Source of the DNA: Thermodesulfobacteriota bacterium
GTDB taxonomy: Bacteria; Desulfobacterota; Binatia; Bin18
Length of the DNA: 64,000 nucleotides
Direction of reading: 5' to 3'
NCBI GenBank assembly: GCA_964291405.2
Contig: OZ219926.1
Span: 1,152,001 to 1,216,000, forward strand
Shown here: positions 2,971-28,757 of the stretch, piece after piece
Layout: each line of letters opens with the position of its first letter
How positions within the stretch are numbered: the stretch's first letter is position 1
Translations under genes and position numbers: made by a program
The notes under the pieces: model-generated
Told to the model about the DNA's origin: nothing
What the model saw: the letters and a program-made list of their open reading frames with translations, nothing else
Database searches by the model: none

Positions 2971-2979
2971 GACGGCCAT

Positions 2980-4937: not shown

Positions 4938-5339
4938 TCACGCCTCATCAGGCAAATACGCGATGGCCTCGACTTCCAGCAGGAGGTCTTCAAACGCCAG
5001 GGCGGCAACCTGGACACCCGTACTGGCCGGATTGAACTTGGTGAAGTATTCCCGCCGGACCGCGAAATACTCCTCGTAGTTCTCAATATTGGTGGTGAAA
5101 TAGGATGTCATTTTCACCACATTGTCGAAGGTCGCGCCCGCCTGCTCCAAGACCGTTTTCATATTCTCAAAGACTTGTCGCGTCTGTGCCCCCAGGTCGC
5201 CCTTGCCCACGACTCGACCGTCAGTATCGACTGCGACCTGGCCCGAGAGAAACAAGAGGTTGCCGATCTTCAGTCCTTGTGAGAGCGGAAAATTTTCGTC
5301 CCATTTCCAACCCGGATCAATAATGTGCGGCGTAATCAT
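4938..5339 (-). CDS. RidA/YjgF/YER057c family protein
   Basis: 'LLFLSGQVA', 'AQTRQVFENMKTVLEQAGATFDNVVK', 'LLEVEAIA'. Confidence 0.88.
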   Translation of the reverse strand: MITPHIIDPGWKWDENFPLSQGLKIGNLLFLSGQVAVDTDGRVVGKGDLGAQTRQVFENMKTVLEQAGATFDNVVKMTSYFTTNIENYEEYFAVRREYFTKFNPASTGVQVAALAFEDLLLEVEAIAYLPDEA

Positions 5340-5366
5340 CGGCTCTGCCCTCCTGTTCGTATGCGT

Positions 5367-7115: not shown

Positions 7116-7164
7116 GAGCTTACTCCTGTCTGACGCATATGCACTCGTCGGTTAAAGCCTGCGA

Positions 7165-8733
7165 TCAGCGACGCCTTTCGTCTGGGGCTTCCGCTTGCGC
7201 ACGGCTGGTGTATCCGCCACCAGTCGTGCGTAAGGTCAAGACTCCGCTCGCAAGGCGCCGGTCGGTGCAGAAGGTATCAACGCGTAGCTCCGCGTCTTCC
7301 GTCTGGATACTGAAGACCGGACGCATATCCGGGCCTGTCTCACCGGACGGTCCGTTGAGACAGGCCGTTACGGAGGCTGGTTGGCGGAGCGCCACCCTGA
7401 CTTCGGAAGCCGGTGCGCCGTACTCGTCTCCAGCGGCTCGCCTATCAGCAACGATTTCCAAACGTTCGATAGATATCTCAGGAAACGCGATCTCGCATTT
7501 TTCGACTGACGGCAGCTTGCGCCGTGCCAAATAACCGGGCGGACCCCAGCCGTTTACCCCGTCCACACCCGCCGCCCCAGGATAGATCAGAGCGTCAAGC
7601 GAAAAAATCCGATACTTGGCAAAACAACAACGCACGAACGCCTGGGTGGGCATACGGGGCAGAGGCTGGCCCGTACACGCGCTGAGCGCGGCCGAAACCG
7701 CGTTGATGATCTCACTGCCTGGGTGAGTCTGGCCCCAGCCGACCGCCGCGGGGTAAGCCGGTCGAACGAGCGATCCTTCTGTGGCCTGGAACTGAACGAC
7801 GCGCAGGACCCCGGAATTCATGGGCAGATCGTCCCCCAGCAGACTGATCACCGGCAGCAGGGCACTCCCACAGCTCGCACCCCAGGCACTATTCATAAAC
7901 GAGGGGCTTTGGGTATCCGAGTCGGAAAAATCGAGCGTTACCTGTCCGTCGCCCACTTCCAGTTGACAGCGGACAACCGGCGAGCGCTCGGCACAGTCAT
8001 GGCCCAATGTGGCCTGACCGTGAAAAACACCCGACGCCCAGTCGCGGAGCCGCGTCCGGGTCGCTGCTTCCGAATAGTCCAGGGCATATTCCAGCCCTTC
8101 GACAAGAGGCTCGAAACCGTACCGGGCCAGCATACGCTGGACGCGCTCCTGCCCCAGCGCCAGGGTGGCCAGCATGGCGTCCAGCAGGCCCCGGGTCTGG
8201 TCCGGCACCCGGCTGTTGAGCAGAACGGTCTGGTGGACATCTCTGTCCAGCCGGCCAAAGCGGGCAAGTTTGATCGGAATAATACGCACGCCTTCGGCCC
8301 AGACTTCCAAGGCCGGCGGGTTATAGCCGCCCACAATCTGACCGCCGAAGTCCGGCATATGGACCCGGACGAGGAGACAGCCCACCAGTTCCTCGGTGGC
8401 GTAGACCGGCGCAAAGACCGTCAGGTCCTGGGTCCGCGTCCCGCCCCGATACGGATCGTTGGTCACCACCAGATCGCCGGCCCGCAGATTGAACTCGTAA
8501 TAATCGAGAATGGCCTGCGCGGTGAGTGCCAGGGAGGGGATGTGAAACGGGTTTTCGGCAACCACCACCTCACCCCTCGCGTTGGTGAAGGCCACCGCAT
8601 AGGCGCGCGCCTCACTGACCGTCTCGGACGGGCTGTTATGCTCCAGGGCGATACTCATGTCGTCCACAATCGCCCGCAGATTATGACGCAGGATTTCGCG
8701 TTTGACAGGGCTTAATTTCGGTCTCTGGTCCAT
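7165..8733 (-). CDS. Divergent hydantoinase B/oxoprolinase family subunit
   Basis: 'NDPYRGGT', 'VHMPDFGG', 'EVWAEGVRIIPIKL', 'LLNSRVPD', 'TTGGGY'; C-terminus shortened, metal motifs altered. Confidence 0.8.
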   Translation of the reverse strand: MDQRPKLSPVKREILRHNLRAIVDDMSIALEHNSPSETVSEARAYAVAFTNARGEVVVAENPFHIPSLALTAQAILDYYEFNLRAGDLVVTNDPYRGGTRTQDLTVFAPVYATEELVGCLLVRVHMPDFGGQIVGGYNPPALEVWAEGVRIIPIKLARFGRLDRDVHQTVLLNSRVPDQTRGLLDAMLATLALGQERVQRMLARYGFEPLVEGLEYALDYSEAATRTRLRDWASGVFHGQATLGHDCAERSPVVRCQLEVGDGQVTLDFSDSDTQSPSFMNSAWGASCGSALLPVISLLGDDLPMNSGVLRVVQFQATEGSLVRPAYPAAVGWGQTHPGSEIINAVSAALSACTGQPLPRMPTQAFVRCCFAKYRIFSLDALIYPGAAGVDGVNGWGPPGYLARRKLPSVEKCEIAFPEISIERLEIVADRRAAGDEYGAPASEVRVALRQPASVTACLNGPSGETGPDMRPVFSIQTEDAELRVDTFCTDRRLASGVLTLRTTGGGYTSRAQAEAPDERRR

Positions 8734-11283: not shown

Positions 11284-11362
11284 TGTTTCCCTCCTTGGTT
11301 CATCGAGCGTGTTCCATTCGGATAAGACCCGGCCCTTTGGAGGACCGAATCTTGTACCCCGG

Positions 11363-13198
11363 CTACCGTTCCTTGCCGAGTTGCTCGCGTAGCTCTCGCG
11401 TGGCCTCCTGGTCGATAGCGAGCGTTTCATCCTCAATGCTACCGGTCAGGACAACGCCATACGCGACGCGTGCCTGCTCGACCGACACCCAGCGTTCAAG
11501 GACGTCACGACGAACATCTTCCGGATTGCGCTCGGTCGGCGGACCATAACCGCCGCCACCACAGTCCCGGTAGCGTATGAACTCACCAGGTAGCAGTTCT
11601 CCGGTAAAGATGTTCGGCAACGGCATCTCGTTCCCGTCCCGCTCGATCTTCGTTGCCCAGGCCTTACTGCCGGCCTGACCGCCCCGCACCCCTTTGGCCG
11701 GAGTCTCGTAGCCTTCCATAGGAAAGGTAAATGTCACTGCATCGCCTTTCGGACCGTATTCCGCTTCAATCGCAGGCGCGCCTCGAAACCGTCCCGGTCC
11801 ACCGCTGTCCTGGGCTAATTTTTCAGACTTGACGAACAACGGGTACTTCTGTTCGTCGATCTCAACGCTGTCCCGGTACAAGAGGCCCGAGATAACGGCA
11901 ATCCCGTAGGTCACCCAGCCGTCGCACGCAGGAGAAGCTGGCCCGCCATTGCCCCCAAGGATGAGCTGGTTGACGTAGGCAGCACCGTTGCGCCGCGTGT
12001 CCGTACCCGAGATAACGGCATAGCCTGCGTTTTGGGCAACCCCGCCTTCCGCCGTGCCCCAGCCATCACCGAGTTCGGCAAAGGCCGACTGGGTGATGCC
12101 TACCAGCCGGTTGGCCGGATTCGTGGTCGCGAGGGAACAAGAATGCGGAAAGCGCGGAATACCGACGACGCAACCTTCCCGGAGCTTGACGTGTATACGC
12201 CGGAAGCTGCCGGCATTGTGGGGGACGTCAGGGTCCAACGCGCTAAAGATGCCCTGCATGACGCTCGATATCGAACAGGCCTCCGACGAGTTCGCCCCGC
12301 CGGCAACGTTGTCCGGGTTGTCGCGGAGGTCGACTTCAATCCGACCAGCCTGCGTATCGATAGCAATTTCGACCTTGAGCGGGAGGCCATCGGGCAGACC
12401 TGGAAACGGGTCGTGCCGACCAGTCCCGATCACGTCGCCACTTGGCAGCTGCCTGATGGCGTGTATCATACGTCGTTCCGAATAATCCAACCACTCGTGA
12501 ACGAACGTCCTGATCGTCTCGGAGCCGTACTTTGCGACAAGGTCCTGAATCTTACGCTCCCCAACCCGGGCCGCGCCTAACATTGCCAGATAGTCCCCAT
12601 ACCACTGCTCGGGAACGCGGATACGCCGGCGACACAAACGGATAATGTCGTCGATATTTGCGTAGGCGCATTGAACGCGGACGCAGGGGAAGAGCAACGC
12701 TCCCTCTTCATAGACGTCGCGCGCAGCCGGCATATACGAGGTGGGCAAGGCATTGCCGATATCGGACAGGTGGGCCTTCGCAACCGCCGTGAACAGATGC
12801 TGCCCCTCGCAGAAAACGGGCACGAGGATGGTGTGATCTGCGGGATGGGAGTTCCCCAAGTATGGGTCGTTATGCAAAAAGGCATCGCCCTCGGCAAGAT
12901 CGGGATGCAGCTCACCCATGGCCTGGGCCTGAAGATGAGAGCCGTAGATATGAGCCGGCAACCCTTCCGCTGCGGCCAGGAGCGCGTGCCGGCCAGTCAC
13001 ACTGGTTGTGATTGAACATGAAAAATCACGCGCAATACTGATCGTGGCCGAGCGGCCGGCCCGGAGCAGGGTTTGGGTCATCTCGCGTACAATCGCTTCA
13101 AATCGGTTGGCCAGCACGGCCAGCAAGGTCGGATCAAGCGTGGTCTTCTGCACCTCTCGACTGTGTGTCTGCGCTGCCATCCATGCCGCCTTTCTCAT
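11363..13198 (-). CDS. Hydantoinase B/oxoprolinase family subunit
   Basis: 'ARDFSCS', 'NDPYLGNSHPADH', 'KAHLSDIG', 'SGGPGRFRG', 'GGGGYGPP..R.PE.V..DV'. Confidence 0.9.
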   Translation of the reverse strand: MRKAAWMAAQTHSREVQKTTLDPTLLAVLANRFEAIVREMTQTLLRAGRSATISIARDFSCSITTSVTGRHALLAAAEGLPAHIYGSHLQAQAMGELHPDLAEGDAFLHNDPYLGNSHPADHTILVPVFCEGQHLFTAVAKAHLSDIGNALPTSYMPAARDVYEEGALLFPCVRVQCAYANIDDIIRLCRRRIRVPEQWYGDYLAMLGAARVGERKIQDLVAKYGSETIRTFVHEWLDYSERRMIHAIRQLPSGDVIGTGRHDPFPGLPDGLPLKVEIAIDTQAGRIEVDLRDNPDNVAGGANSSEACSISSVMQGIFSALDPDVPHNAGSFRRIHVKLREGCVVGIPRFPHSCSLATTNPANRLVGITQSAFAELGDGWGTAEGGVAQNAGYAVISGTDTRRNGAAYVNQLILGGNGGPASPACDGWVTYGIAVISGLLYRDSVEIDEQKYPLFVKSEKLAQDSGGPGRFRGAPAIEAEYGPKGDAVTFTFPMEGYETPAKGVRGGQAGSKAWATKIERDGNEMPLPNIFTGELLPGEFIRYRDCGGGGYGPPTERNPEDVRRDVLERWVSVEQARVAYGVVLTGSIEDETLAIDQEATRELREQLGKER

Positions 13199-13205
13199 AC
13201 GCCAA

Positions 13206-15287
13206 TCAGGGTATGCTGATGAGGTAGTTATTCAGCGACGCCACCTGGGCGACGCTATGGGGGTAGAGCACTATCGTCGTTGTCGGCTCCTCGATGATCG
13301 CCGGTCCGTGGAGCTGCATGCCGGGCTCAAGCGCTGATCCCAAGTACAGCGGAGTATCAGTGCGACCCTGACCTGCGAAATACACACTCCGGTGCGCATG
13401 GGGAATGGGCCCCCGCGGTGTATCCCGCGCAGGCGGACGGTCTGGTTGAATCCGATCCAGGAGCCCGGTCAAACGGCCCTTCCAGTACAGGCACTCGACC
13501 TCGGCCCCTTCTTCCTTGACGGCAAAAACGCGCTCGTGCACCCGATGGAAGCCTTGGACCAGGGCTGCTACGTCGCGCGGACCATCAAAGCGGTCCTTTT
13601 CCAAGGGAATCTCGAGTTCCCATACCTGAGTGGGATAGCGGGCTTCAACAAAGAAGTCCCGCTTAAAATTGCGGAGGCCCCGCCCCCGCAGCTCCGACTC
13701 AAGGGCGTCCATTTCGGTGTGCAGAGACTGCAAGGCCGCATTCACCTCGGTGTAGGCGAAATCGTCTGTCACGGCCAGTCTACTCAGACTGAATTCAGCG
13801 ACAATGTCCGAGTACTGTGCGCCGCAGGCGCTGAGCGCACCCGCGGTCCGGGGGACGAGCACCTGAGGACAGCCCAGGGCTTGGGCAATAGAGACAATAT
13901 TCAGTCCGGCGGCTCCTCCCCCAGCGACAAGCAGTGTCTCGCGCGGGTCAATCCCTTCGTTCACCGAAATCTCCTGGATCGCCTGCACCATGGCCTCACC
14001 GGCAATAGTCAGAATAGCCTGGGCGGCTTGGTCGATCGTCTGCTCCAGCGGCTCGGCAATGGTTCCAACGGCGTGCCGCGCGGCCTCCGTATCCAGTTGC
14101 ATCTGGCCTCCCAGGAAGTACGCGGGATTCAAGTAGCCAAGCACCAGGGCCGCATCCGTGACCGTCGGCCGTGTCCCCCCCCGTCCGTAGCAGGCCGGAC
14201 CGGGCTCAGCGCCTGCACTGTGTGGGCCAATACGGAGCAGCCCACCAGGGTCGATCCAGGCGATCGAGCCGCCGCCGGCACCAATGCTCCGGACATCGAC
14301 GGACGAGAGGCCGGTCATATGTCCAACCCACTGACCACCGAGCCAGGTTTCACGCGTGGCCTTTATCAGGCCATCCCGCACCAGACTGACGTCGAAGCTC
14401 GTCCCGCCCGTATCACACGTGATGACATCTCGGCTGCCAACTTCAGCCTGCGCGTAATGCAGCGCAGCCACCGGTGCAAGCGCGGGACCCGAGCGGATAG
14501 TATTAATAGGACGCTCCGCCAGCTCCTGAATGGGCATGACGCCACCGGACGATGTTGCGCCGAGGATCTCGCCACGAAAGCCGGCGCGGCTCACATCCTG
14601 GGCAATCTCCCGCAGATGGCGCTGCATGAGCGGTTTGAGTGAGGCATCGATGACGGTTGCCGAGGCCCGACGATATTCACGAATAATCGGGTTGAGCCGG
14701 GATGAGAGCGTGTAGGCAAGCCCCGGCAGTTCCTCCTCAATCAACCTGCCCAGAGCCGCTTCGTGTACCGGGTTGACAATGGACCAGACCAGACAGACAC
14801 CAATCGCCTCAATATGATGCGCACGGAGGCGCTTCAGAATACTGCGCGCATGCTCCACATCGAGCGGGACAACAACATCTCCCTCCGCATTCACTCGCTC
14901 CCGTATTTCAAAGGTGAGACGCCGCGGGACATAGGGTTCCGGGTAGGGTGCCGTGAAGTCATAGGCGTTGGTCTTGCCGCCCTCGCGGAGCACCAGAATG
15001 TCGGGAAAGCCCTCAGTTGTCAGAAATGCCGTCTTGCCGGTCTTCCCCTCGACCACGGCGTTCGTCGCGGTGGTCGTCCCATAGATAAAGAGGTCGGCCT
15101 GGCTGAGCAGGGTGGGCACGTCAGGCTCGCCAAGCTGCCGGGCCACGACGGTCAGGCCCTGCTCCATACCGTGAAAGAGCCGCTCTCGGGTAGTGAGGCC
15201 CTTTCCGATCGTCATGCGCCCCGTGTTGTCAGCGACAACAACATCGGTGAAAGTCCCGCCAACGTCAATGGCAATGCGATAACCCAT
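13206..15287 (-). CDS. Hydantoinase A/oxoprolinase (ATP-binding) subunit
   Basis: 'IAIDVGGTFTD', 'TTTATNA', 'DTGGTSFD', 'IGAGGGSIA', 'PGPACYGRGG', 'GPAIIEEPTTT'. Confidence 0.92.
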   Translation of the reverse strand: MGYRIAIDVGGTFTDVVVADNTGRMTIGKGLTTRERLFHGMEQGLTVVARQLGEPDVPTLLSQADLFIYGTTTATNAVVEGKTGKTAFLTTEGFPDILVLREGGKTNAYDFTAPYPEPYVPRRLTFEIRERVNAEGDVVVPLDVEHARSILKRLRAHHIEAIGVCLVWSIVNPVHEAALGRLIEEELPGLAYTLSSRLNPIIREYRRASATVIDASLKPLMQRHLREIAQDVSRAGFRGEILGATSSGGVMPIQELAERPINTIRSGPALAPVAALHYAQAEVGSRDVITCDTGGTSFDVSLVRDGLIKATRETWLGGQWVGHMTGLSSVDVRSIGAGGGSIAWIDPGGLLRIGPHSAGAEPGPACYGRGGTRPTVTDAALVLGYLNPAYFLGGQMQLDTEAARHAVGTIAEPLEQTIDQAAQAILTIAGEAMVQAIQEISVNEGIDPRETLLVAGGGAAGLNIVSIAQALGCPQVLVPRTAGALSACGAQYSDIVAEFSLSRLAVTDDFAYTEVNAALQSLHTEMDALESELRGRGLRNFKRDFFVEARYPTQVWELEIPLEKDRFDGPRDVAALVQGFHRVHERVFAVKEEGAEVECLYWKGRLTGLLDRIQPDRPPARDTPRGPIPHAHRSVYFAGQGRTDTPLYLGSALEPGMQLHGPAIIEEPTTTIVLYPHSVAQVASLNNYLISIP

Positions 15288-15504
15288 GGGCAGCCCCAAA
15301 CGATGCTGAGCTGAAATGCCGGATAAGTCCGGGCATTATACTCTCAGTCTTCCAGATATCCAGCGTTGTCTGTATATCTCACTGTTTTTTCTCCTGCTAT
15401 GCGTGCTTACCAGCGTGTCCCTGTAAGCGTCCCTGTGGCAATGATCTTATCACTACAGATAGCGTATCTGGACAGCTTGAGCCGGTGGCGTATTATTCAA
15501 GCGA

Positions 15505-17193
15505 GTGAAAGGAAAAGATGTGGCACGGGGACAAAAGCAGAAGAGACAAGACGATCACTCGCAGGACACCCATGACGCGACGACCGGCTATGAGGCCCAA
15601 CTCTGGGCCATGGCCGACGCCCTGCGCGGCAGCATGGACGCCGCGGAGTACAAGCATGTCGTTCTCGGTCTGATCTTTCTGAAATACATCTCCGACGCCT
15701 TCGAGGAGATGCACGCCCGTCTCGAAGGTGAACAGGATCAGGGCGCCGACCCCGAGGACCCGGACGAGTATCGCGCCGAGAATATCTTCTGGGTGCCGCC
15801 CGAGGCTCGCTGGACGCAGCTCAAGGCCCAGGCACGGCAAGCCACCATCGGCCAACTCGTCGATACCGCCATGACCGGTATTGAGCGCGACAACCCGGCA
15901 CTCAAGGACGTACTGCCCAAGGACTATGCCCGCCCGGCGCTCGACAAGCAGCGGCTCGGCCAGCTCATCGACCTCATCAGCAATATCCAGGTCGGCGACG
16001 CGGAAGCCCGCTCCAAGGACGTGCTGGGCCGCGTTTACGAATACTTTCTGTCGCAGTTCGCCAGCGCCGAGGGCAAGAAGGGCGGCGAGTTCTACACCCC
16101 GCGCTGCGTGGTCACGCTGTTGGTCGAGATGCTGGAGCCCTATCAAGGCCGGGTCTATGACCCCTGCTGTGGCTCCTCCGGCATGTTCGTGCAGTCGGTC
16201 GCCTTCATCCGTGCCCATCAATCCGGCAACGGTAATGGTGGCAGCGCCCCACAGGCCACCAGGGCCGACATCTCGATTTATGGCCAGGAGTCCAACTACA
16301 CCACCTGGCGGCTGGCAAAGATGAACCTCGCCATTCGCGGCATCGAGGGCCAGATCGCCCACGGCGACACCTTCCACAACGACCGCCATCCCGACCTCAA
16401 GGCCGACTTCATCCTAGCCAACCCGCCCTTCAATATCTCCGACTGGGGCGGCGAACGGCTAACCGAGGACAAGCGCTGGCAGTACGGCACCCCACCCAAG
16501 GGCAATGCTAACTTCGCTTGGGTGCAGCATATCGTCCACCATTTGGCACCGGTCGGTACGGCCGGCTTCGTACTCGCCAATGGCTCCATGTCGTCCAACC
16601 AGTCGGGCGAGGGCGCTATCAGAAAAAGTCTGATCGAAGCTAGCCTGGTGGACTGTATGGTGGCGCTCCCCGGCCAACTCTTCTATTCAACTCAAATCCC
16701 GGCCTGCCTGTGGTTCCTGGCCCGCAACCGCAGGAACCGGCAGTCCAGCGGCCGGCGCGGCGAAATCCTGTTCATCGACGCCCGTAAACTCGGTCGCATG
16801 GTGGACCGCACCCACCGCGAACTGACCGCCGCCGACATCGCCCGCATCGCCGACACCTACCATGCTTGGCGCAATCACCCTCCTTCCCCCTCGCAAGGCG
16901 AGCCCCATCCTACCCCCTCTCCCTCGAAGGGAGAGGGCCGGGGTGAGGGTGCCGCCGTCTATGCCGACATCCCCGGCTTCTGCAAGAGTGCATCCCTGGC
17001 AGACGTACGCAAGCACGGCTATGTGCTGACCCCCGGTCGCTATGTCGGCGCGGAAGCACGAGAGGACGACGGCGAGCCGTTCGAGGACAAGATGAAACGG
17101 CTGGTAGCAGAGTTACGCATGCAGCAGGCCGAGTCTGCGAAGCTGGACGTGGCTATCGAGGCCAACCTGAAGGAGCTTGGATTTGGTGGGTGA
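15505..17193 (+). CDS. hsdM: Type I restriction-modification N6-adenine methyltransferase subunit M
   Basis: '[10 protein letters not shown]', 'GEFYTP', '[10 protein letters not shown]', catalytic 'ANPPF', '[10 protein letters not shown]'; exact start uncertain. Confidence 0.95.
16876..16950. repeat. Palindromic REP-like insertion, in frame within hsdM
   Basis: CCCTCTCCCT-CGA-AGGGAGAGGG at 16915-16937, bounded by ACCCTC...GAGGGT; encodes '[25 protein letters not shown]'. Confidence 0.7.
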
Positions 17194-18568
17194 CACCGCG
17201 AATCTCCGGTCGTTGCTTATCCACACGCGCGATGGTGAGTGGGGAGTCGCCAAGCCTGACGACGGTCTTGTTCCCGTACATGTCATCCGAGGCACCGATT
17301 TCGAGCCCGTTCGACGGGGCGACCTAACAACGATCCCAACTCGATACCTGCCGGCCGAACACAGAGCGAGAAAGGCGTTAAGACCGGGCGACATTCTTAT
17401 TGAGACTGCCGGAGGCTCAAAGGGTCGTCCGACTGGCCGTACTTTACTCATTCAGGCGCGTACATTGGAAGGCACCGAAATTCCTTTCACCTGTGCAAGC
17501 TTTGCTCGGTTCCTTCGTGTAGATGAAGCCCGCATCAATGCTCCATATTTGTACTGGTTTCTCCAGTATCTCTACCAGATTGGGGAGATGGAACAGCATC
17601 AGGTTCAACACACAGGTATCGCTAGATTTCAGTTCACTAGATTTGCTGAAGAAATTCAGGTCCCTCTGCCACCCCTCCCTGAACAACGCACCATCGCCCA
17701 CATCCTCGGCACCCTGGACGACAAGATCGAACTCAACCGCCGCATGAACGAAACGCTCGAAGAGATGGCGCGGGCGCTATTCAAGAGTTGGTTTGTGGAC
17801 TTCGATCCCGTCCATGCCAAAGCCACCCTCAGAAACCACACTCCTAATCACTCCCCCCTTGATTGGACTGTGGAACGGGCTCGGGCGTATCTTGACGGGA
17901 TGGACTCAGACATTGTCGCATTGTTCCCTGATAGTTTTGTCGATTCGGAGTTGGGGGAGATACCGGAGGGGTGGGGAGTTGGAAAATTGAAGGATGCGGT
18001 GGATCAACTCCGTGACAAAGAGAACCCGCTTACGTCACCGAGTGCTTCCTTCAGCCATTTTAGTATTCCTGCTTATGATGAGGGGCAAACACCGAAGCAG
18101 GAGCTAGGTGGAAGTATCAAAAGTACAAAGACACGGGTGTGTCCTGGCGTCGTCCTTTTGTCCAAGCTCAACCCAGAGATTGAAAGGGTTTGGTTAGTGG
18201 ATGTATCGCCCGATGACCAAGCAGTCTGTTCGACTGAGTTCTTGGTTCTCCGTACCAAACCGCCTTTTCACCGCAGCTATGTCTACTGCCTACTGCGTAC
18301 CTCTCTTTTCCGGCAGCAGATTAAATCACTTGTTACAGGGACATCTAAGAGCCACCAACGCGCCCAAGCGGAAGCCGTCCTAGACCTCCCCATAGTCTTT
18401 CCACCGGGGGCTCTCATAGATTCGTTCGAGAAGGTCGCCGAAAATTTTCTAAGTAAAACACTGAATTGTCGCTCCGCATCCCGCGCTCTCGCCACCCTAC
18501 GGGATGCACTACTACCCAAGCTCGTTTCTGGCGAGCTACGGGTAAAAAGTCAGAAACAGTATGATTGA
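17186..18568 (+). CDS. hsdS: Type I R-M specificity subunit S
   Basis: Two variable TRDs separated by '[47 protein letters not shown]'; C-terminal '[16 protein letters not shown]'; overlaps the hsdM stop. Confidence 0.93.
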
Positions 18569-20300
18569 TCCGATCCATTCACTCGCATTTTCCATTCAGG
18601 CAAATCGAGGCGTTTATGCCGCCCTTGTCGGCTCAGGTATATCCAGGGCGGCAGAAATTCCGACCGGTTGGGAAATAACGCTAGGCTTGGTTCATGGGCT
18701 TGCAGCTCTCCAAAACAATACAGCGGAGCCCGACCCTGAGACTTGGTATCGGGAACAGTTCGGGAGAGAGCCGGACTATTCCGATCTCCTTGAAAATCTC
18801 GCCAGGACGCCCGCCGAGCGGCAACAATTGTTACGCAGCTATTGGGAGCCGAATGAACAGGAGCGTGCCGAAGGGAAGAAGCAGCCAACCGCAGCACACC
18901 ACGCTATCGCTGCATTGGTGGCTCAAGGATTCATAAAGGTCATCATTACCACAAATTTTGACCGCCTGATGGAAAGCGCCTTGCGTGACGCTGGAGTTGA
19001 GCCAACTGTTCTGAGTTCACCAGATCACGTCCAAGGGATGCTACCGCTTATCCACACTCAGTGCTGCGTTCTCAAGCTCCATGGCGACTATCTCGACACG
19101 CGTATTCGCAATACGCCCAGCGAACTCGAAGCATACCCCGAGGAATTCGACCAACTCCTTGATCGTATCTTCGATGAGTTTGGTCTTATTATCTGCGGCT
19201 GGTCAGCTACCTGGGACAATGCGTTGCGTAACGCAATCGAGCGCTGCCCATCCCGGCGGTTTACGACCTATTGGGCGGTACGTGGCGAGCCCAGCGATGA
19301 GGCTCATCGGCTGATTAACCATCGTGGTGCTGAAGTGATCAGTATTGAGGAAGCCGACACGTTCTTTCAAACCGTTCAGCAACACGTCGAGTCCATCGAA
19401 GAGTTTTCGAGGCCCCATCCCCTTTCAACCGAAGCCGCAGTGGCAAGCTTAAAGCGCTATCTCTCTGAGTCCAGATATCGGATTCAGCTTTCGGACCTCA
19501 TTGACGAAACAGTGGATAGAATTATCGAGGCGACCTCCGGCGAGGCTTATTCCGTTCAAGGCATACCTATAAATACAGAATCAGCGACGGCCCGTGTACG
19601 CGGCTACGAAGCGGCGTGTTCGACATTACTGGCAATGGCACCGGTCGGAGGGTTTTGGGCAGAAGAGGGACACTATCATGTTTGGCAACGAGCACTGGAG
19701 CGTTTATCCCCAGTTAATAGTAATGGTTCTCCATTTTGGTTGAGCTTGCAATGCTATCCAGGAACACTGCTGCTTTACGCCTTGGGCCTCGGTGTGGTTA
19801 AGGCACATCGATTGGAATTCCTTGAACGCCTCTTCGCAACTATGATCCACAGGGAACATCGTGAGGCGATTGCTGCCGTGCAACTACTTCCCCCATTCTG
19901 CTTATTCAGTGTGCATAGCCAAGGCGGCCAGGCTGCTCAAATATTAGAAGGTATGGAAAGAAATTATGTACCGCTGAACATCTGGTTGTATAACGCACTA
20001 AGACAGTATGCAAAGCGAATCATCCCTAGCGATGATGAGTATATGTTGGTCTTCGATAAGCTCGAAATTCTTATCGCGCTTGGATATGCGTACCGAGAGC
20101 GTCTTAATTGGGTTCCAAGGGGAGTATTTATTTACCGAGATGAGAACAGACATCGAGTTTTACAAGAGATCAAGGAATCTACATCGGCACTCCAGGAGCA
20201 ATCGCCGTTTGTGAAAAGCGGTATTTTTGGTGAAACTGTTGAGCAATGCTCGCAAAGCTTGAAATTTTTCAACGTATCTCTCGCGCGAGCCCATCGGTGA
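18561..20300 (+). CDS. SIR2-like (SIR2_2, NADase-type) domain protein with uncharacterised C-terminal half
   Basis: 'LVGSGISR', 'IITTNFDRLME', 'LKLHGDY', 'LIICGWS..WD' sirtuin-like motifs; start overlaps the hsdS stop. Confidence 0.85.
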   Translation: MIDPIHSLAFSIQANRGVYAALVGSGISRAAEIPTGWEITLGLVHGLAALQNNTAEPDPETWYREQFGREPDYSDLLENLARTPAERQQLLRSYWEPNEQERAEGKKQPTAAHHAIAALVAQGFIKVIITTNFDRLMESALRDAGVEPTVLSSPDHVQGMLPLIHTQCCVLKLHGDYLDTRIRNTPSELEAYPEEFDQLLDRIFDEFGLIICGWSATWDNALRNAIERCPSRRFTTYWAVRGEPSDEAHRLINHRGAEVISIEEADTFFQTVQQHVESIEEFSRPHPLSTEAAVASLKRYLSESRYRIQLSDLIDETVDRIIEATSGEAYSVQGIPINTESATARVRGYEAACSTLLAMAPVGGFWAEEGHYHVWQRALERLSPVNSNGSPFWLSLQCYPGTLLLYALGLGVVKAHRLEFLERLFATMIHREHREAIAAVQLLPPFCLFSVHSQGGQAAQILEGMERNYVPLNIWLYNALRQYAKRIIPSDDEYMLVFDKLEILIALGYAYRERLNWVPRGVFIYRDENRHRVLQEIKESTSALQEQSPFVKSGIFGETVEQCSQSLKFFNVSLARAHR

Positions 20301-20339
20301 TGATGGGAGTAAAGTTTTCACCGTGAAGGAGGTTGAGTA

Positions 20340-20729
20340 GTGGCAATGAAACGCGCATTTATCAGTTTTGACTTCGACCATGACGAGGAACTGAGAAATG
20401 CTTTGGTTGGTCAGGCAAAAAATCCAGATTCACCATTTACTATCGCGGATTGGTCGGTAAAGGAGCCATTCACCGGGGATTGGAGAGGGAAGGTTCGCGA
20501 CCGAATACGCAGAACCGACCTGACCATTGTCATCTGTGGACGGTACACACATACCGCCAAAGGGGTTGCTGCCGAGTTGAGCATCACCCGTGAGGAAAAC
20601 AAACCTTACTTTCTACTAAAGGGGCGCCCTGATTACACTTGTACTAAGCCTGACATGGCCCGTCGTTCAGACAAGATTTATAGATGGACATGGGAAAATC
20701 TGAGACGGCTGATTCGCGGAGAGAGATAG
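20340..20729 (+). CDS. Stand-alone TIR-domain protein (ThsB / DUF1863-like)
   Basis: AAGGAGG RBS; 'RAFISFDFDHD', 'DWSVKE', 'RIRRTDLTIVICG..T', catalytic-type Glu in 'GVAAELSI', C-terminal 'WTWENL'. Confidence 0.85.
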   Translation: MAMKRAFISFDFDHDEELRNALVGQAKNPDSPFTIADWSVKEPFTGDWRGKVRDRIRRTDLTIVICGRYTHTAKGVAAELSITREENKPYFLLKGRPDYTCTKPDMARRSDKIYRWTWENLRRLIRGER

Positions 20730-20733
20730 CCTG

Positions 20734-21237
20734 ATGTCCCAGCAGTCGAATGGGCGTTTGGTTAATTACACGAAAGAGACGTATGGAGATTCCTTCGGCA
20801 CGGACCTTCTTGAGCAATATAAAATATACGTGCAGTCAGCCGAGAATGTCAGCGCGCGCCGGGTGGCTTCGAGTCGCTATCTCCTCACACTCAACATCGC
20901 GCTCGTGACTCTCTACGGCATTCAATCTGAGGGGTTCGTTCAGAGCTATTGGGCGATACTGGTTCCAATACTCGGCATCCTAGTCTCTTTGCTTTGGTAC
21001 CAGATCATCAAGTCTCACAGTGATCTGAATACCGTCAAATTCAAGATAATCCACCAACTTGAAGAGCATTTGCCAGTTGCGCTGTATGCCTATGAGTGGC
21101 AGTTGGCCGGAGAGGGGCGCGGGACATCCTATAGTGCCGTCACTCACATAGAAAAGTGGATTCCGAGAGTCTTTATTGCCCTCCACAGCATTCTCTTTAT
21201 CTCACCGTTTTTGGTAAAGAGCGACTTCCTGATTTGA
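20734..21237 (+). CDS. Small ~3-TM membrane protein, candidate pore-forming immune effector
   Basis: 'LLEQYKIYVQSAENVSARR' followed by hydrophobic helices 'YLLTLNIALVTLYGI', 'WAILVPILGILVSLLWYQII', 'WIPRVFIALHSILFISPFL'; 4 bp after the TIR stop. Confidence 0.7.
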   Translation: MSQQSNGRLVNYTKETYGDSFGTDLLEQYKIYVQSAENVSARRVASSRYLLTLNIALVTLYGIQSEGFVQSYWAILVPILGILVSLLWYQIIKSHSDLNTVKFKIIHQLEEHLPVALYAYEWQLAGEGRGTSYSAVTHIEKWIPRVFIALHSILFISPFLVKSDFLI

Positions 21238-21267
21238 CTACAATAATCACCTGCCCCGAATCCACCC

Positions 21268-21302
21268 TCGAAACAACGTCCAACATGGTCTATACTGGAC
21301 CA
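21268..21302 (+). promoter_or_regulatory. Putative sigma70 promoter with overlapping operator for the phd-vapC-hsdR unit
   Basis: TCGAAA-N17-TATACT; inverted repeat TGGTC(21286-90)/GACCA(21298-302) flanks the -10 box. Confidence 0.45.
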
Positions 21303-21330
21303 CTATCGCTTAGTTGCCGGAGGTGTGACC

Positions 21331-21606
21331 ATGGAAGTCTCCAAACCCCAGCGTGTATGGACTGTTGCCGAAGCGAAGGCCCGTCTGTCCGAGGTCTTGC
21401 GGCTGGCCGAGACGGAAGGGCCGCAGCGCATAGGTACCCGGCGTCCGTTCGTTGTGGTGCCCGCCGAGGCGTGGGACGCGAAAACGCCGCCGCGTAAGCC
21501 CTTTGGCCAGTGGCTCATAGAGAACGTACCACGCGGCACCAATCTTGAGGTGCCGGAGCGGAGCTCCAATCGCCCGATTCCCTTCATTGACGAAGAAGAC
21601 GAATGA
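21331..21606 (+). CDS. Phd/YefM-family antitoxin
   Basis: GGAGGT RBS; 'WTVAEAKARLSEVLRLAETEGPQRI'; ATGA overlap with the PIN toxin. Confidence 0.82.
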   Translation: MEVSKPQRVWTVAEAKARLSEVLRLAETEGPQRIGTRRPFVVVPAEAWDAKTPPRKPFGQWLIENVPRGTNLEVPERSSNRPIPFIDEEDE

Positions 21607-22018
21607 CTGGCTACCTTCTGGATACCAACGTAATCTCGGAGTTGACGCGGAACATTCCAGACCCCCGGGTTGTGGACTTTCTGGCCGAGCGAGACGATGT
21701 ATGGGTGTCGTCTGTCCTCATCCATGAAGTAGAATACGGATTACGGTTGCTCCCACAGGGAATCCGCCGCAATCGGCTGTCTACCATGCAAGCAGCCATT
21801 CTTTCGGGATACGCCCATCACATACTGCCATTGGACAGGGCAGGGGCCGAGTGGGCCGCCGAGTTTCGGGCGAACGCCCGGCGCTCTGGATATACGATCG
21901 ACGTGGGCGACGCCTTGGTCGCCGGAATAGCCCGAGCCAATACCCTCACCGTCGCCACTCGGAACGTCGCCGATTTCCGGCCCTTCAACGTCGCAGTCAT
22001 CAATCCCTGGGAAACGTC

Positions 22019-22022
<4 letters not shown>
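21603..22022 (+). CDS. vapC: PIN-domain toxin, VapC family
   Basis: '[10 protein letters not shown]', 'EVEYG', 'DALVAGIA', 'VATRNVADF', 'INPW'. Confidence 0.9.
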
Positions 22023-25249
<3,227 letters not shown>

Positions 25250-25339
25250 CCGGAGGCAGGGCGCCTTAGGGATGTTCGCCTTGACCTCCAGATATAAACG
25301 CGCGATGGTTCTGGAACTGACACAGTCGGAGGGAAGCCC

Positions 25340-27715
25340 ATGACCACGGTCGGCACGGGTAAGATGGTTGGCGCCCAGGTGAAACGGGTCGAAGACCCGC
25401 GGGTGCTGTTGGGTCAAAGCCAGTATGTCGATGATATCCACCTGCCCGGCACCCTCGGAGTCGCCTTTGTCCGCAGCCCCTACGCCCATGCCCGGCTGCT
25501 CACGATCGATGTCAGCGCCGCTCAGGCGTATCCAGGGGTTGAGGCGGTCTTGACCGGGGCGGATGTTGCCCAGGCGATCCGCCCCCTCCGCGTGGAGTAT
25601 GATCCGGCCAAGGCCCCGAAACATAAACCGTGCAACTGGTCGGTGTTAGCCCTGGACAAAGTCCGCTTCGTGGGAGAACCCGTAGCGGTCGTGGTGGCCT
25701 CGGACCGCTACACGGCAGAGGATGCCGCGGCTCGCGTGGCAGTCGAGTATGAGCCCCTGGAGGTTGTGAGCGATATAGAACAGGCTATGCAGCCGGACGC
25801 ACCGCTCATTCATGAGGAATGGGGCGACAATCTCATGCAGACAGTGGACATGGAGGCCGGCGCGATTGCCCAGGCATTTCAATCGGCAGACTGCATCGTA
25901 GCCGAGCGCTTTGCGACCGGCCGGCATGTGGCGCTACCCATGGAAGCCCGCGGCTGTCTGGCCCACTATGAGCCGGCTTTAGGCTCCCTGACACTGTGGT
26001 CCTCGACCCAGGTACCGCATCTGATGCGCGCCCACCTGGCCCGGCTGCTCGACTTTCCCGAGCACCATATTCGGGTCATTGCGCCGGATGTCGGCGGAGG
26101 GTTTGGACCCAAAGCCTATGTCTATCCCGAGGAAGTCCTGCTGACCTTCCTTGCCAAGCATGTCGGCCGCCCGGTCAAGTGGATCGAAGACCGACGCGAA
26201 AACCTGTCCGCCTCGACCTTGCAGGCCAAACAACAAGTCGTGCAGGCGGAACTCGCCCTGACACAGGAGGGGGCGGTCCTGGGGGTGAAGGGGCGTTTTA
26301 TCTGCGACGTGGGCGCGTACTCGGCCTATCCGTGGGGCTCGGCCCTGGAGGCCGGCATGGCGGCTTCGGCCTTCCCCGGAGGCCCCTATAAGGTCCCAGC
26401 CTTCCGCTGCGAGGCCCTCTCGGTTGTCACCAACAAGGTGACGAGTGGAGCCTATCGTGGGGTGGGCTTGCCGGTCAGTATCCTGGTCATGGAACGCCTG
26501 CTCGACCTGGGGGCACAGAAACTTGGGCTCGACCCGGCCGAACTGCGTCTGCGCAATATGATCCGCAAGGAGGAACATCCCTATCAGATCGTCACCGGGG
26601 TTGAGATTGAAAGCGGCAGTCACCGGGAAGCGCTGCAAAAAGCGCTGGACATGCTCGACTACCAGGCTTTCCGGGCCGAGCAGCAGCAGGCGAGACAACA
26701 CGGGCGTTACCTCGGCGTCGGCCTGGGCTGTTATGTCGAGAGTTCGTCCTACAGCTATCGCAGTTTCGAGCCGGTCGGCATCACCTGGGGTGGCTACGAG
26801 TCGGCCACCGTGCGTATAGACGCGAATGGCAAGGTCACCGTCCTGGTCGGCACCCACTCGCACGGCCAGGGCCATGAGACGACGTTTGCCCAGGTTGCGG
26901 CAGACGAACTGGGCGTGCCCGTGGCCGACGTCAGGGTGATCCAGGGAGATACCACGACCGTTCCCCACGGCTGGGGGACGTGGGCCAGCCGTAGCGCCGT
27001 GCTCGGCGGCGGCGCCATTATCCAGGCGTCGGGCCAGCTGCGGGAGAAAATTCTGCGTACGGCCTCGCGCCTGAGTGAAGTGCCACAAGATGATCTTGAG
27101 CTGGCCGAGGGGCTGGTCCGGCGCAAGACGGACGGCCTGGCGCTCATGCCCCTCCAGGACATCGCCCACCTGCTGGTTGTTCGGGCACCGGCAGGTCTAC
27201 CGGAAGACGAAGAACCGGGCTTGGAGGCAACGGCACACTACACCCCACCGCCCTGGACCCACGCCAACGCCACGGTTCTGGTGACGGTCGAGGTGGACAT
27301 CGAAACCGGCTCCGTTCGGCTGCTGCGTCTGATTGTGGTCGAAGACTGCGGCACAATAATCAACCCGCTGGTGGTTGACGGACAGATCCAGGGCGGCGTG
27401 GCCCAGGGGATCGGCTCGGCCCTGTACGAACAGACCGTGTACGACGACAACGGGCAACTGCTGACGGGCACGCTGATGGACTATCTGGCCCCAACCGCGG
27501 TGGACGTTCCTCGGGTTGAAATCGGACATATAGAAACCCCGGCTCCGAACACGCCGCGCGGCATCAAGGGCATGGGCGAAGGCGGAGCCATTTCACCGCC
27601 GGCAGCCATAGCCAACGCCGTGGCGGACGCCCTGGCACCGTTGGGGGTACGGGTCAGCGAGATTCCACTCACCCCGGAGCGGGTGCTCGCCCTGATTGAC
27701 CAGGCACGGGCATGA
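25340..27715 (+). CDS. Xanthine dehydrogenase/CoxL-family molybdopterin-binding large subunit
   Basis: 'RVEDPR', 'RSPYAHA', 'DVGGGFG', 'AYRGVG', 'HGQGHET', 'GQIQGGVAQGIG', 'KGMGEGG'. Confidence 0.9.
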   Translation: MTTVGTGKMVGAQVKRVEDPRVLLGQSQYVDDIHLPGTLGVAFVRSPYAHARLLTIDVSAAQAYPGVEAVLTGADVAQAIRPLRVEYDPAKAPKHKPCNWSVLALDKVRFVGEPVAVVVASDRYTAEDAAARVAVEYEPLEVVSDIEQAMQPDAPLIHEEWGDNLMQTVDMEAGAIAQAFQSADCIVAERFATGRHVALPMEARGCLAHYEPALGSLTLWSSTQVPHLMRAHLARLLDFPEHHIRVIAPDVGGGFGPKAYVYPEEVLLTFLAKHVGRPVKWIEDRRENLSASTLQAKQQVVQAELALTQEGAVLGVKGRFICDVGAYSAYPWGSALEAGMAASAFPGGPYKVPAFRCEALSVVTNKVTSGAYRGVGLPVSILVMERLLDLGAQKLGLDPAELRLRNMIRKEEHPYQIVTGVEIESGSHREALQKALDMLDYQAFRAEQQQARQHGRYLGVGLGCYVESSSYSYRSFEPVGITWGGYESATVRIDANGKVTVLVGTHSHGQGHETTFAQVAADELGVPVADVRVIQGDTTTVPHGWGTWASRSAVLGGGAIIQASGQLREKILRTASRLSEVPQDDLELAEGLVRRKTDGLALMPLQDIAHLLVVRAPAGLPEDEEPGLEATAHYTPPPWTHANATVLVTVEVDIETGSVRLLRLIVVEDCGTIINPLVVDGQIQGGVAQGIGSALYEQTVYDDNGQLLTGTLMDYLAPTAVDVPRVEIGHIETPAPNTPRGIKGMGEGGAISPPAAIANAVADALAPLGVRVSEIPLTPERVLALIDQARA

Positions 27716-27749
27716 GACAAGTAATAAGGGTGCGCGAGAGGAGGAGCAT

Positions 27750-28757
27750 ATGCGTCTAGGCCTTACTCTCACGGGCGACCAGTTGACAATGGCAGATATC
27801 GTCCGTTTTGCGTGTCAGGCTGAGGAGGCAGATTTCGATTCGGTATGGGTGACCGAGGCCTGGCGCGAGGCTTTCGTTCCCCTGACCGCTATCGCCATGC
27901 AGACGAGCAGGGTACGCATTGGCACGGCCATCGCCCTGACTATGGCACGCAGCCCCGTTCTGATGGAGCTGGCGGCAACAGCCGTGGATGAAATTGCCCA
28001 GGGCCGCCTTGTTCTTGGCATTGGCCCCGGCCCCAAGGCCTGGAACGAAAACTGGCACGCCGTGCGGTTCTATCCCCCGGCCGCGTATGTCCGCGAGTAT
28101 GCGGAAGTCCTGCGTCTGATGTGGACCGCCCACTCCGGAAAGAGCGTAGACTACCAGGGCAAGTATCTCCAGATTCGGGAGTATCAACGCTTTTCCCGTC
28201 CCTACCGGGATCGAATCCCCATCTATTTTGGAGCGGTCATGCCCAAATTCCTCCGGGTGACAGGGGCGGTTGCTGACGGCCTGTGTGTTGCCGCCTGCAA
28301 TACTCCCCGCTACATCGCCGATGTCGCGCGCCGTTATATGGCCGAGGGGATGCAGGAAAGCCAGCGAGAGGCGAACACGGTGGGCTGTATGAGTTTAGTC
28401 ATCTGTGCCGTTGATAAGGATAGAGAGAAAGCCAGAGACAGGGCGAAGCGGCAGATCGCCTTTTACACGACTTTCCCCTACTACGATATTGTGTTGGACC
28501 AGCACGATCTCGCTGAGGAAAAAATGCGAATTCGCGAGGCCTGGGCGCGGAACGACACCACGGGGATGGTTGCCAGTGTCAGCGACCAGATGGTGGATCT
28601 CATCTCCATTGCCGGTACGCCACAGGAATGTCGCCAGGCCCTCTCCCGCTACGAGGGCATAGCCGACGAGGTGTCCCTCTACTCGCCCAGTTTTGAGCTC
28701 AGCCGTGAGGAGGTGCTCACAAATCACCAAGCCATCCTGGAAGCCTTTGGTCGCTAA
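27750..28757 (+). CDS. LLM-class flavin/F420-dependent oxidoreductase
   Basis: GAGGAG RBS; 'AEEADFDSVWVTE', 'RIGTAI', 'GRLVLGIG', 'IPIYFGA'. Confidence 0.88.
   Translation: MRLGLTLTGDQLTMADIVRFACQAEEADFDSVWVTEAWREAFVPLTAIAMQTSRVRIGTAIALTMARSPVLMELAATAVDEIAQGRLVLGIGPGPKAWNENWHAVRFYPPAAYVREYAEVLRLMWTAHSGKSVDYQGKYLQIREYQRFSRPYRDRIPIYFGAVMPKFLRVTGAVADGLCVAACNTPRYIADVARRYMAEGMQESQREANTVGCMSLVICAVDKDREKARDRAKRQIAFYTTFPYYDIVLDQHDLAEEKMRIREAWARNDTTGMVASVSDQMVDLISIAGTPQECRQALSRYEGIADEVSLYSPSFELSREEVLTNHQAILEAFGR

Follow-up and report, generated by a model that had tools for sequence, protein, structure and literature searches.

Two candidate anti-phage modules, a PDC-S65 SIR2 gene and a Thoeris-like TIR-8xMP gene pair, in the hsdS-hsdR gap of a Thermodesulfobacteriota restriction-modification operon

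The DNA analyzed in this study, a stretch of 64,000 nucleotides (nt) from the genome of a Thermodesulfobacteriota bacterium (class Binatia; assembly GCA_964291405.2, contig OZ219926.1, positions 1,152,001 to 1,216,000 of the forward strand), is called the window in the following, and coordinates without a locus name refer to it. It carries a type I restriction-modification (R-M) operon in which three co-oriented genes, encoding a SIR2-like protein, a stand-alone TIR protein and a small membrane protein, lie between the genes of the specificity subunit (hsdS) and the restriction subunit (hsdR). The original prediction had read these genes as one cassette forming a candidate non-canonical Thoeris-like anti-phage system, with a TIR signal that either gates a minimal pore effector or feeds two effectors. 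According to the analysis presented here, the hsdS-hsdR gap probably harbors two independent anti-phage modules, namely a single SIR2 gene of the PADLOC family PDC-S65 and a Thoeris-like pair of a ThsB-type TIR and a membrane protein of the 8xMP family, together with a Phd/PIN pair. The genes of the operon and the three cargo genes, delimited by simple open reading frame (ORF) calls, are as follows:

15505..17193, + strand: hsdM, type I R-M methyltransferase (context); Pfam N6_Mtase E 7.5e-106 and HsdM_N E 3.1e-28, PADLOC MTase_I E 5.9e-218; GC 0.629
17177..18568, + strand: hsdS, specificity subunit (context), its stop overlapping the SIR2 start; Pfam Methylase_S E 7.4e-12, PADLOC Specificity_I E 3e-83 (residues 64-459); GC 0.53
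18561..20300, + strand: module 1, SIR2-like PDC-S65 family member of 579 amino acids (aa); PADLOC PDLC05061 E 2.9e-215, Pfam SIR2_2; GC 0.510
20340..20729, + strand: ThsB-type minimal TIR, 129 aa, GTG start (module 2a); Pfam ThsB_TIR E 3.5e-8; GC 0.492
20734..21237, + strand: small membrane protein of the 8xMP family, 167 aa (module 2b); Pfam PF24838 E 9.1e-36
22016..25249, + strand (ORF open from 21851): hsdR, restriction subunit (context); Pfam HSDR_N, SWI2_SNF2 and T1RH-like_C, lowest E 1.2e-135

Order, strand and lengths of the three cargo genes agree with the original prediction, and the same holds for their location inside a type I R-M operon flanked by hsdM, hsdS and hsdR, for the overlap of the SIR2 ATG with the end of hsdS, which amounts to 8 nt, and for the 4 nt separating the TIR stop from the start of the membrane protein gene. 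The GTG start of the TIR gene at 20340 is preceded at a distance of 7 nt by the ribosome-binding site AAGGAGG, and homologues share the N-terminus MAMKR with the window TIR. The true start of hsdR is likely to be found at about 22016-22019, with the alignment to relatives beginning at 22019. GC content is 0.49-0.51 in the three cargo genes and 0.53 in hsdS, as compared to 0.63 in hsdM and hsdR, and this difference between cargo and hsdM/hsdR suggests a foreign origin of the cargo. The gene order is not an assembly chimera, since the junctions are covered by contigs from two sequencing runs: a single contig of 3869 nt from run X1, which is possibly the window's own source, covers 17695-21563 with one difference, and overlapping contigs from run X2, which belongs to another study, tile 17945-21525 without any difference. 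No RNA sequencing run was listed as containing the stretch, and no raw reads of a Hi-C run (X21) could be placed on it. Scanning the window for Rfam families and tRNAs yielded nothing, and a scan of the window for promoters and terminators stayed near the expectation from shuffled sequence. For an empty-site comparison, a genome of the same genus (about 70% identical) was inspected and turned out not to be syntenic with the window.

The assignment of the TIR to the ThsB type is based on the Pfam model ThsB_TIR (34.2 bits at a cut-off of 21.2), and the protein is minimal in that it contains no extra sensor domain. A weak match was also obtained for the TIR of PDB entry 8fz9 (E 0.0022); the preprint describing this structure (BcTir/Tpr) proved to have no bearing on the system of the window. 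The Glu that had been predicted to occupy the catalytic position within the motif GVAAELSI is Glu79. All 36 TIRs of one alignment, two distant ones included, share this residue, and it is present in 88 of the 91 rows of a wider alignment, the remaining three being gaps.

The gene downstream of the TIR belongs to the family PF24838, called 'octameric membrane protein family (8xMP)' in Pfam, with a score of 123.1 bits (cut-off 30) and with residues 26-157 corresponding to profile positions 1-133 of 136. Searches of this protein against PADLOC, NCBIfam, PHROGs and PDB sequences gave no match. The proposed number of about three transmembrane (TM) helices is roughly right, as hydropathy (Kyte-Doolittle, 19-residue windows) revealed two strong stretches at residues 67-94 and 143-161 and a shorter, weaker one at 49-63. 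The best-conserved residues in an alignment of 119 sequences, namely Y29, R43, K102, E110, P114, E121, W122 and E140, fall outside these stretches, that is in an N-terminal helix and in the linker 94-142; these conserved residues are polar or charged (among them Y29, R43, K102, E110, E121, and W122). The wider family comprises 3023 clusters at E<=1e-3. On viral contigs, none of 133 pattern matches encodes an 8xMP relative, and none of 13 scanned long proteins containing 8xMP includes a TIR. Three apparent fusions of 8xMP with HsdR (P0282, P0283, P0284) were rejected as their 8xMP C-terminus, junctions and tails are scrambled; the scrambled junctions and tails are best read as frameshift or indel errors across abutting genes.

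TIR and 8xMP form a conserved pair, and their adjacency is obligate within the subfamily. Searching contigs of one genome per species with a profile built from 25 close 8xMP proteins led to 80 loci, which according to their record titles stem from metagenome-assembled genomes of Binatia, Dehalococcoidia and other Chloroflexota, Caldilineaceae, Latescibacterota, Nitrospirales, several Pseudomonadota and one member of the Actinomycetes. In 79 of these 80 loci 8xMP is preceded on its own strand by a TIR of the window family that ends at a distance of 200 nt or less, this and all further counts over the sample not representing independent events because the loci were chosen through 8xMP, are mutually related and were partly inherited in a block with hsdR. 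The reverse search, using a TIR profile against 301 genomes from the class to which the Dehalococcoidia-titled genome of locus L012 (G306) belongs, returned 24 TIR places in 22 genomes, 11 of which had E<=1e-48. Nine of these 11 strong places are adjoined by 8xMP; the other two are a TIR that is broken by a stop and stands without 8xMP (L206) and a TIR with a caspase-like gene behind it (L208).

The exception among the 80 loci, L078, has no small ThsB-type TIR, and a TIR-APAZ gene and a short prokaryotic Argonaute (pAgo) are found directly upstream of 8xMP instead. In this locus (5204-8519) the TIR-APAZ protein (491 aa, Pfam TIR_2) and the pAgo (443 aa, PADLOC pAgo_I E 7.6e-149) resemble a SPARTA pair to which 8xMP, beginning 3 nt past the pAgo stop, has been appended, and it is a single case. 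At least two TIR-family matches are present in 11 loci, eight of which contain two full-length copies. These paralogues precede one 8xMP gene in tandem or nearby arrangement (L019, L023, L025, L038, L043, L054, L073, and L077, ~7030-7995), with a Mutator-family transposase separating the copies in L019, where the copy adjacent to 8xMP has lost its N-terminus. In a further locus, L081, the TIR adjoining 8xMP is split over two frames.

The SIR2 gene is a stand-alone, single-gene candidate module that is independent of the TIR pair. Its product matches the PADLOC family PDC-S65 from end to end (residues 1-573 on model positions 12-585 of 592, E 2.9e-215), without any difference at the family level, and Pfam SIR2_2 covers residues 127-260 (E 1.3e-12). 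The GSG (24-26), TTNFD (130-134) and KLHGD (172-176) motifs are intact in the translation, as had been noted before, and of the catalytic residues N132 is conserved in 76 and H174 in 75 of 76 aligned relatives. The family as such is already catalogued as a candidate in PADLOC; new for PDC-S65 is the count showing its habitual position between hsdS and hsdR. Among 80 metagenomic loci encoding SIR2 relatives at 44-75% identity, a profile search found no TIR and no 8xMP beside the SIR2 gene in any case. Considering only those loci with at least 1.5 kb of upstream (n=59) or downstream (n=52) sequence, hsdS precedes the SIR2 gene in 40 of 59 (31 of them within 50 nt) and hsdR follows it in 35 of 52. 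These flank counts and the constant absence of TIR and 8xMP indicate that a PDC-S65 SIR2 by itself is a habitual insert of the hsdS-hsdR gap.

The same picture emerges from the side of the TIR-8xMP pair. A window-type SIR2 occurs in just three of its 80 loci (L042, L050, L053; all Caldilineaceae-titled), and in L042 SIR2 and TIR are set apart by about 3.6 kb that contain other genes, one of them for a DUF4238 protein. The window segment 18561-20300 has no match in the syntenic loci L003, L004 and L009 or in the other nearest Binatia-titled loci (L002-L009). The neighborhood survey suggested by the original prediction is thus borne out for the combination of TIR and TM protein, whereas the reading of all three genes as one cassette and the idea of one TIR feeding two effectors do not hold, as the SIR2 is a single-gene PDC-S65 module that is missing from the nearest syntenic loci. 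In L002, a 333-aa protein (6519-7520) occupies the slot of the window SIR2. A protein of this kind, with 331-333 aa, is located directly 5′ of the TIR in 10 of the 80 loci; the C-terminus of the one in L035 (948-1943) shows weak matches to Nuc_deoxyrib_tr and to a PADLOC 'TIR effector' model (E 6.6e-10), and the copy in L002 has no PADLOC match.

The resemblance of the SIR2 to effectors of known systems is limited to its N-terminal half. The closest relative with a solved structure, PDB 8in8/8jkz ('Sir2 superfamily protein'), is matched at E 6.9e-10 over residues 24-244 only, and the Aga_SIR2 models of PADLOC match residues 72-272. We take 8in8/8jkz to represent SPARSA, i.e., the SIR2-APAZ of short pAgo systems, which would make this system the best solved relative of the N-terminal half; however, no pAgo partner is encoded in the window and the C-terminal half of the SIR2 is unrelated. 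With ThsA, the SIR2-SLOG effector of type I Thoeris, the window protein shares the NADase core of SIR2, in which Asn and His are conserved, but the PADLOC ThsA match is confined to about 70 residues of this core (106-178, E 7e-6) and none of the 80 relatives is accompanied by a TIR. Scans with Pfam and PADLOC detected neither SLOG nor Macro in the SIR2, the TIR or the membrane protein, in line with the original remarks that no SLOG-like motif was recognizable in the C-terminal half of the SIR2 and that the TM protein is too small for a Macro domain. An identification of the SIR2 as ThsA was rejected for want of a SLOG match and of TIR linkage.

New Thoeris types have recently been defined by a single criterion, namely that TIRs of one cluster adjoin known effectors in some genomes, whereas in other genomes a new gene is their neighbor (Yirmiya et al., bioRxiv 10.64898/2025.12.03.692087). 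The effectors described in this December 2025 preprint comprise a caspase-like protein in type IV and a SLATT protein in type VII (ThsH, cyclic ADP-ribose (cADPR)), and they already include membrane effectors, namely TM-Macro in type II, ThsF/DUF2270 with three TM segments, a predicted heptameric state and 3′cADPR in type V, and an ion channel in type X; the small multi-TM effectors of types V and X are modelled as rings with charged inter-protomer pockets (Yirmiya et al., 10.64898/2025.12.03.692087). The TIRs related to the window TIR swap effectors in the same manner, being found with 8xMP, caspase-like and SLATT partners. In L208, a TIR 57% identical to the window TIR is followed after 1 nt by a caspase-like Peptidase_C14 gene; in a quick maximum-likelihood tree with few alignment columns for its number of rows, this TIR nests in the 47-row clade that holds the window TIR (SH-aLRT 98), its sister being an 8xMP-linked TIR. 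Weaker TIR relatives include a second caspase-like locus (L212) and two TIR-SLATT loci (L216, L217). In one 28-row clade of this tree, TIRs whose record titles name Binatia, Nitrospirales, Dehalococcoidia, Actinomycetes, Alphaproteobacteria, Latescibacterota and Caldilineaceae are mixed at short distances, which suggests that the module was recently transferred between phyla.

Because TIRs of the same clade adjoin caspase-like or SLATT genes, the TIR-8xMP pair can be regarded as Thoeris-like by the criterion outlined in the preprint (Yirmiya et al.). It combines, as broadly expected of Thoeris, a ThsB-type TIR retaining the catalytic Glu with a conserved adjacent effector gene and with same-clade TIRs that are linked to established effectors. 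With the described membrane-effector types it shares the two-gene operon of a small ThsB-type TIR and a small multi-TM protein as well as the tandem TIR paralogues; it differs from them in that its effector belongs to PF24838, has no Macro domain and shows no detected homology to DUF2270 or SLATT_1. Of the original label 'non-canonical Thoeris-like', the second half stands, while the first does not fully apply to the pair, as Thoeris types with membrane effectors were already described. The 8xMP effector family is none of the eleven Thoeris types named in the text of the preprint and is not represented by any PADLOC-DB v2 model, but it may be among the 18 putative effectors which are listed there as untested. 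A further difference is that three quarters of the TIR-8xMP loci are situated inside type I R-M operons, whereas the word 'restriction' is absent from the main text of the preprint. A literature search, with subscription journals outside its coverage, found nothing relevant on 8xMP, PF24838 or an octameric membrane protein, no paper naming PDC-S65 and none on TIR pairs or PDC-S65 lodged in the hsdS-hsdR gap.

Other TIR-related arrangements were encountered during these surveys. L197 (784-1842) encodes a QueC-TIR fusion protein of 352 aa, and a QueC gene (2404-3033) is also located beside the locus with two TIRs and a caspase-like gene in L212. In L189 (895-1920), which belongs to the same genome as L050, a SLATT_1 protein of 147 aa is the divergent neighbor of a 220-aa ORF that was read as TIR-like from its translation alone, giving a layout that resembles type VII Thoeris.

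The TIR-8xMP pair usually resides in an R-M operon and is nevertheless autonomous of R-M. With the Hsd proteins of the window as queries, hsdS upstream plus hsdR downstream was found in 53 of the 80 loci and hsdS upstream alone in six, so that 59 loci are located in type I R-M operons and 21 are free of both flanks; the 8xMP stop often lies only a few nt from the hsdR start. Neighbors in the 21 Hsd-free loci are housekeeping genes (e.g., L015, L063, L068), transposases (L019, L023, L038, L056, L075, L080) and other defense genes (AbiE, GmrSD, trypsin-like, further TIRs). In a sample of 301 genomes from the phylum of the window, two additional loci (L082, L083) contain a strong 8xMP member and the TIR without any R-M gene within +/-1.5 kb. 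The Binatia-titled locus L003 is syntenic with window positions 11357-15481 and 24762-27808 (flanks 92-94% identical) and no longer contains hsdM or the central part of hsdR, with TIR, 8xMP, Phd and PIN being kept; the same genome has a second locus, L002, in which the pair is accompanied by an intact R-M system.

The interval between hsdS and TIR in related loci measures 0.3-5 kb and contains varied genes. Representatives of the cargo in this slot are Kiwa (KwaA and KwaB), PDC-M02 (A and B), SoFic, PDC-S20 (KAP NTPase), PDC-S45 (trypsin-like), PDC-S32 (AbiJ-like), a Septu-like ATPase, NTase_sub_bind, which presumably represents the HEPN component in toxin-antitoxin pairs of the HEPN/MNT kind, DUF2806, DUF433 and further TIR proteins. 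Given so many unrelated cargoes, the hsdS-hsdR slot looks like a general cargo hotspot. Whole known or candidate defense systems are found in it in L011 (5968-6543), L079 (6482-7393), L046 (4017-5192), L062 (2268-2750) and L073 (8704-9843), the Kiwa and PDC-M02 genes being placed between hsdS and TIR and SoFic between 8xMP and hsdR.

In the window, the segment between 8xMP and hsdR contains a Phd/PIN pair (21325-22022) that was not mentioned in the original prediction and that belongs to neither module, with the following features:

21251..21272, + strand: left copy of a 22-nt direct repeat, duplicated hsdR 5′ end; from a repeat search, 86% identical to 22027-22048
21325-21606, + strand: Phd/YefM-like antitoxin; Pfam PhdYeFM_antitox E 3.5e-5, 23.9 bits, which is below the cut-off of 29.8 bits
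21603-22022, + strand: PIN/VapC-like toxin; Pfam PIN E 3.9e-13

Only part of the 80 loci have homologues of Phd and/or PIN in the interval from 8xMP to hsdR. The two copies of the repeat bracket the pair, and in L006/L007, which have no Phd/PIN, a single 30-nt stretch at the hsdR start (8510-8539) aligns to both of them. Since this stretch aligns twice, Phd/PIN appears to have been inserted with duplication of the 5′ end of hsdR. Other short repeats in the window look like chance.

With regard to function, the following mechanism is proposed as the most likely one, by analogy with Thoeris. The ThsB-type TIR would sense infection and, by means of Glu79, convert nicotinamide adenine dinucleotide (NAD+) into a signal derived from ADP-ribose. 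This signal may bind to the conserved, supposedly cytoplasmic parts of 8xMP, i.e., the N-terminal helix and the linker that joins the second hydrophobic segment to the third, whereupon a homo-oligomeric 8xMP would breach or depolarize the inner membrane and thereby abort the infection. The original suggestion of a TIR signal gating a minimal pore effector thus agrees with the conserved, Thoeris-like TIR-8xMP pair, the gating step being one that we infer. Independently of this, the PDC-S65 SIR2 is presumed to act as an NAD+-depleting enzyme of abortive infection (predicted NADase), whose uncharacterised C-terminal half presumably serves in sensing.

Several observations weigh against the Thoeris-like part of this explanation, in addition to the relatedness of the 80 loci and their selection through 8xMP mentioned above. 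The PADLOC check that had been proposed identified the SIR2 over its full length, but the Thoeris I/II models of PADLOC-DB v2 did not recognize the pair, as the ThsB models match the window TIR weakly (E 0.005-0.008) and 8xMP has no PADLOC match. Pfam scans detected no known ligand- or nucleotide-binding domain in 8xMP. There was no Pfam match to DUF2270 (PF10028) either, and hhalign gave probabilities of 0.5% and 4.8% for DUF2270 and of 0.3% for SLATT_1, from comparison alignments that were shallow (four sequences for DUF2270, eight for SLATT_1) and with SLATT_1 as the sole SLATT family compared. The window protein has no SLATT match; weak SLATT_1 matches were seen in four of 119 diverse 8xMP members (best E 0.0029). 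Furthermore, 8xMP genes without TIR occur among housekeeping genes in L084, L085, L087-L091 and L103, with the one in L084 sitting between a MnmE-like gene, named from its translation alone, and rsmG (Pfam GidB), and the existence of such members implies that 8xMP can act without a TIR signal. Finally, pairwise identities of TIR and 8xMP are only weakly correlated (Spearman 0.19 over 44 loci; 17 of 999 permutations as high), which fits a shuffling of TIRs and at the same time weakens the argument for co-evolution.

Among the alternatives, a common system of all three genes, in which one TIR signal activates both the SIR2 for NAD+ depletion and the membrane protein, is very improbable. The adjacency and common orientation of the genes in the window and the three Caldilineaceae-titled loci with all of them in one operon would agree with it, but TIR and 8xMP are missing from all 80 loci of SIR2 relatives and 77 of the 80 TIR-8xMP loci have no window-type SIR2, even L042 keeps SIR2 and TIR about 3.6 kb apart, the nearest relatives lack the SIR2 in their syntenic loci, and the scans revealed neither SLOG nor Macro nor any other domain known to bind signals, the ThsA match being restricted to the SIR2 core. 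The polarity within the pair might also be reversed, with an 8xMP ring that serves as a membrane anchor or senses, for example, injection or envelope stress and activates the TIR by direct contact, and with the TIR depleting NAD+ without any diffusible signal. The minimal TIR without an extra sensor domain, the TIR-less 8xMP members, which may indicate a function of 8xMP of its own, and the position of 8xMP 3′ of the TIR-APAZ/pAgo pair in L078, whose TIR we take to be of the NADase effector type, would be compatible with such an arrangement, as would the fact that some bacterial TIRs are effectors that deplete NAD (Yirmiya et al., 10.64898/2025.12.03.692087, section 5). Still, it is rather unlikely, considering that caspase-like or SLATT genes take the place of 8xMP next to same-clade TIRs, which fits interchangeable effectors, that tandem TIR paralogues in front of one 8xMP fit several sensors serving one effector, and that a TIR-8xMP fusion was seen neither in the 13 long forms nor in a search of longer proteins. 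A role outside of defense, be it as an addiction module of a holin-like 8xMP toxin and a TIR regulator that stabilizes the operon or island, or as a housekeeping channel, would find some support in the divergent 8xMP members among housekeeping genes and in the toxin-antitoxin cassettes of the same slot; the strictly kept catalytic Glu, the defense-rich neighborhoods and the known Thoeris effectors adjoining sister TIRs make it quite improbable.

The frequent location in R-M operons raises the question of whether the modules guard restriction. The HsdM/S/R complex could silence the co-transcribed pair and, separately, the SIR2, until a phage anti-restriction protein of the Ocr/ArdA/Stp kind blocks this complex and thereby triggers them; the chemistry of the effectors could be the same as in the Thoeris-like explanation, the trigger alone being different. 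A precedent for the position is the anticodon nuclease PrrC, which occupies the same place between hsdS and hsdR. Another one is provided by Ronin, whose membrane toxin of 61 aa is kept in check by HsdS and HsdM and released when triggered by Ocr, ArdA or Aop1 (Silas et al., bioRxiv 10.1101/2023.04.06.535777). Both EcoprrI with PrrC and Ronin resemble the window in having an effector of the abortive-infection type inside or fused to a type I R-M operon, the one of Ronin being likewise a small membrane protein; RonA, however, is a peptide with a single TM segment, and the modules of the window also occur without R-M. The notion of a guard is further in accordance with the 53 loci in which the pair lies between hsdS and hsdR, the six more in which it is 3′ of hsdS, the Hsd flanks of the SIR2 relatives (40 of 59 upstream, 35 of 52 downstream) and a moderate correlation between the identities of module and HsdR (Spearman 0.41 over 44 loci; 0 of 999 permutations as high). 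On the other hand, this co-occurrence is explicable by block inheritance, the slot is filled with many unrelated cargoes (Kiwa, PDC-M02, SoFic, PDC-S20, PDC-S45, HEPN/MNT), 21 of 80 loci contain the pair without any Hsd gene in the vicinity, and L003 retained it after decay of the R-M system. Since cargo variety and R-M-free copies favor a plain hotspot, we consider a guard function unlikely. The same holds for an elaborated form of this idea, in which the type I R-M operons of these uncultivated lineages constitute two-layer immune units, with co-transcribed NAD-based suicide modules between hsdS and hsdR that are licensed by the state of the Hsd complex and fire when restriction is blocked, so that 8xMP would be a new membrane pore gated by a TIR signal and without relation to the DUF2270, SLATT and Macro-TM effectors, and TIR signaling would detect anti-restriction, not a phage structural protein.

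If the explanation by two independent modules, one of them Thoeris-like, is true, 8xMP would represent one more unrelated family of membrane effectors in TIR-based immune signaling. Splitting the locus leaves two small, clean candidates, a two-gene TIR-8xMP module of 0.9 kb and a single-gene SIR2 module of 1.7 kb, both of which are predicted to target NAD and habitually fill the hsdS-hsdR gap. This pattern makes it testable whether abortive modules in R-M operons are passengers of a hotspot or guards of restriction. According to their record titles, the carriers belong to uncultivated lineages (Binatia, Dehalococcoidia, Caldilineaceae, Latescibacterota, and Nitrospirales), which are under-sampled by defense surveys based on isolates.

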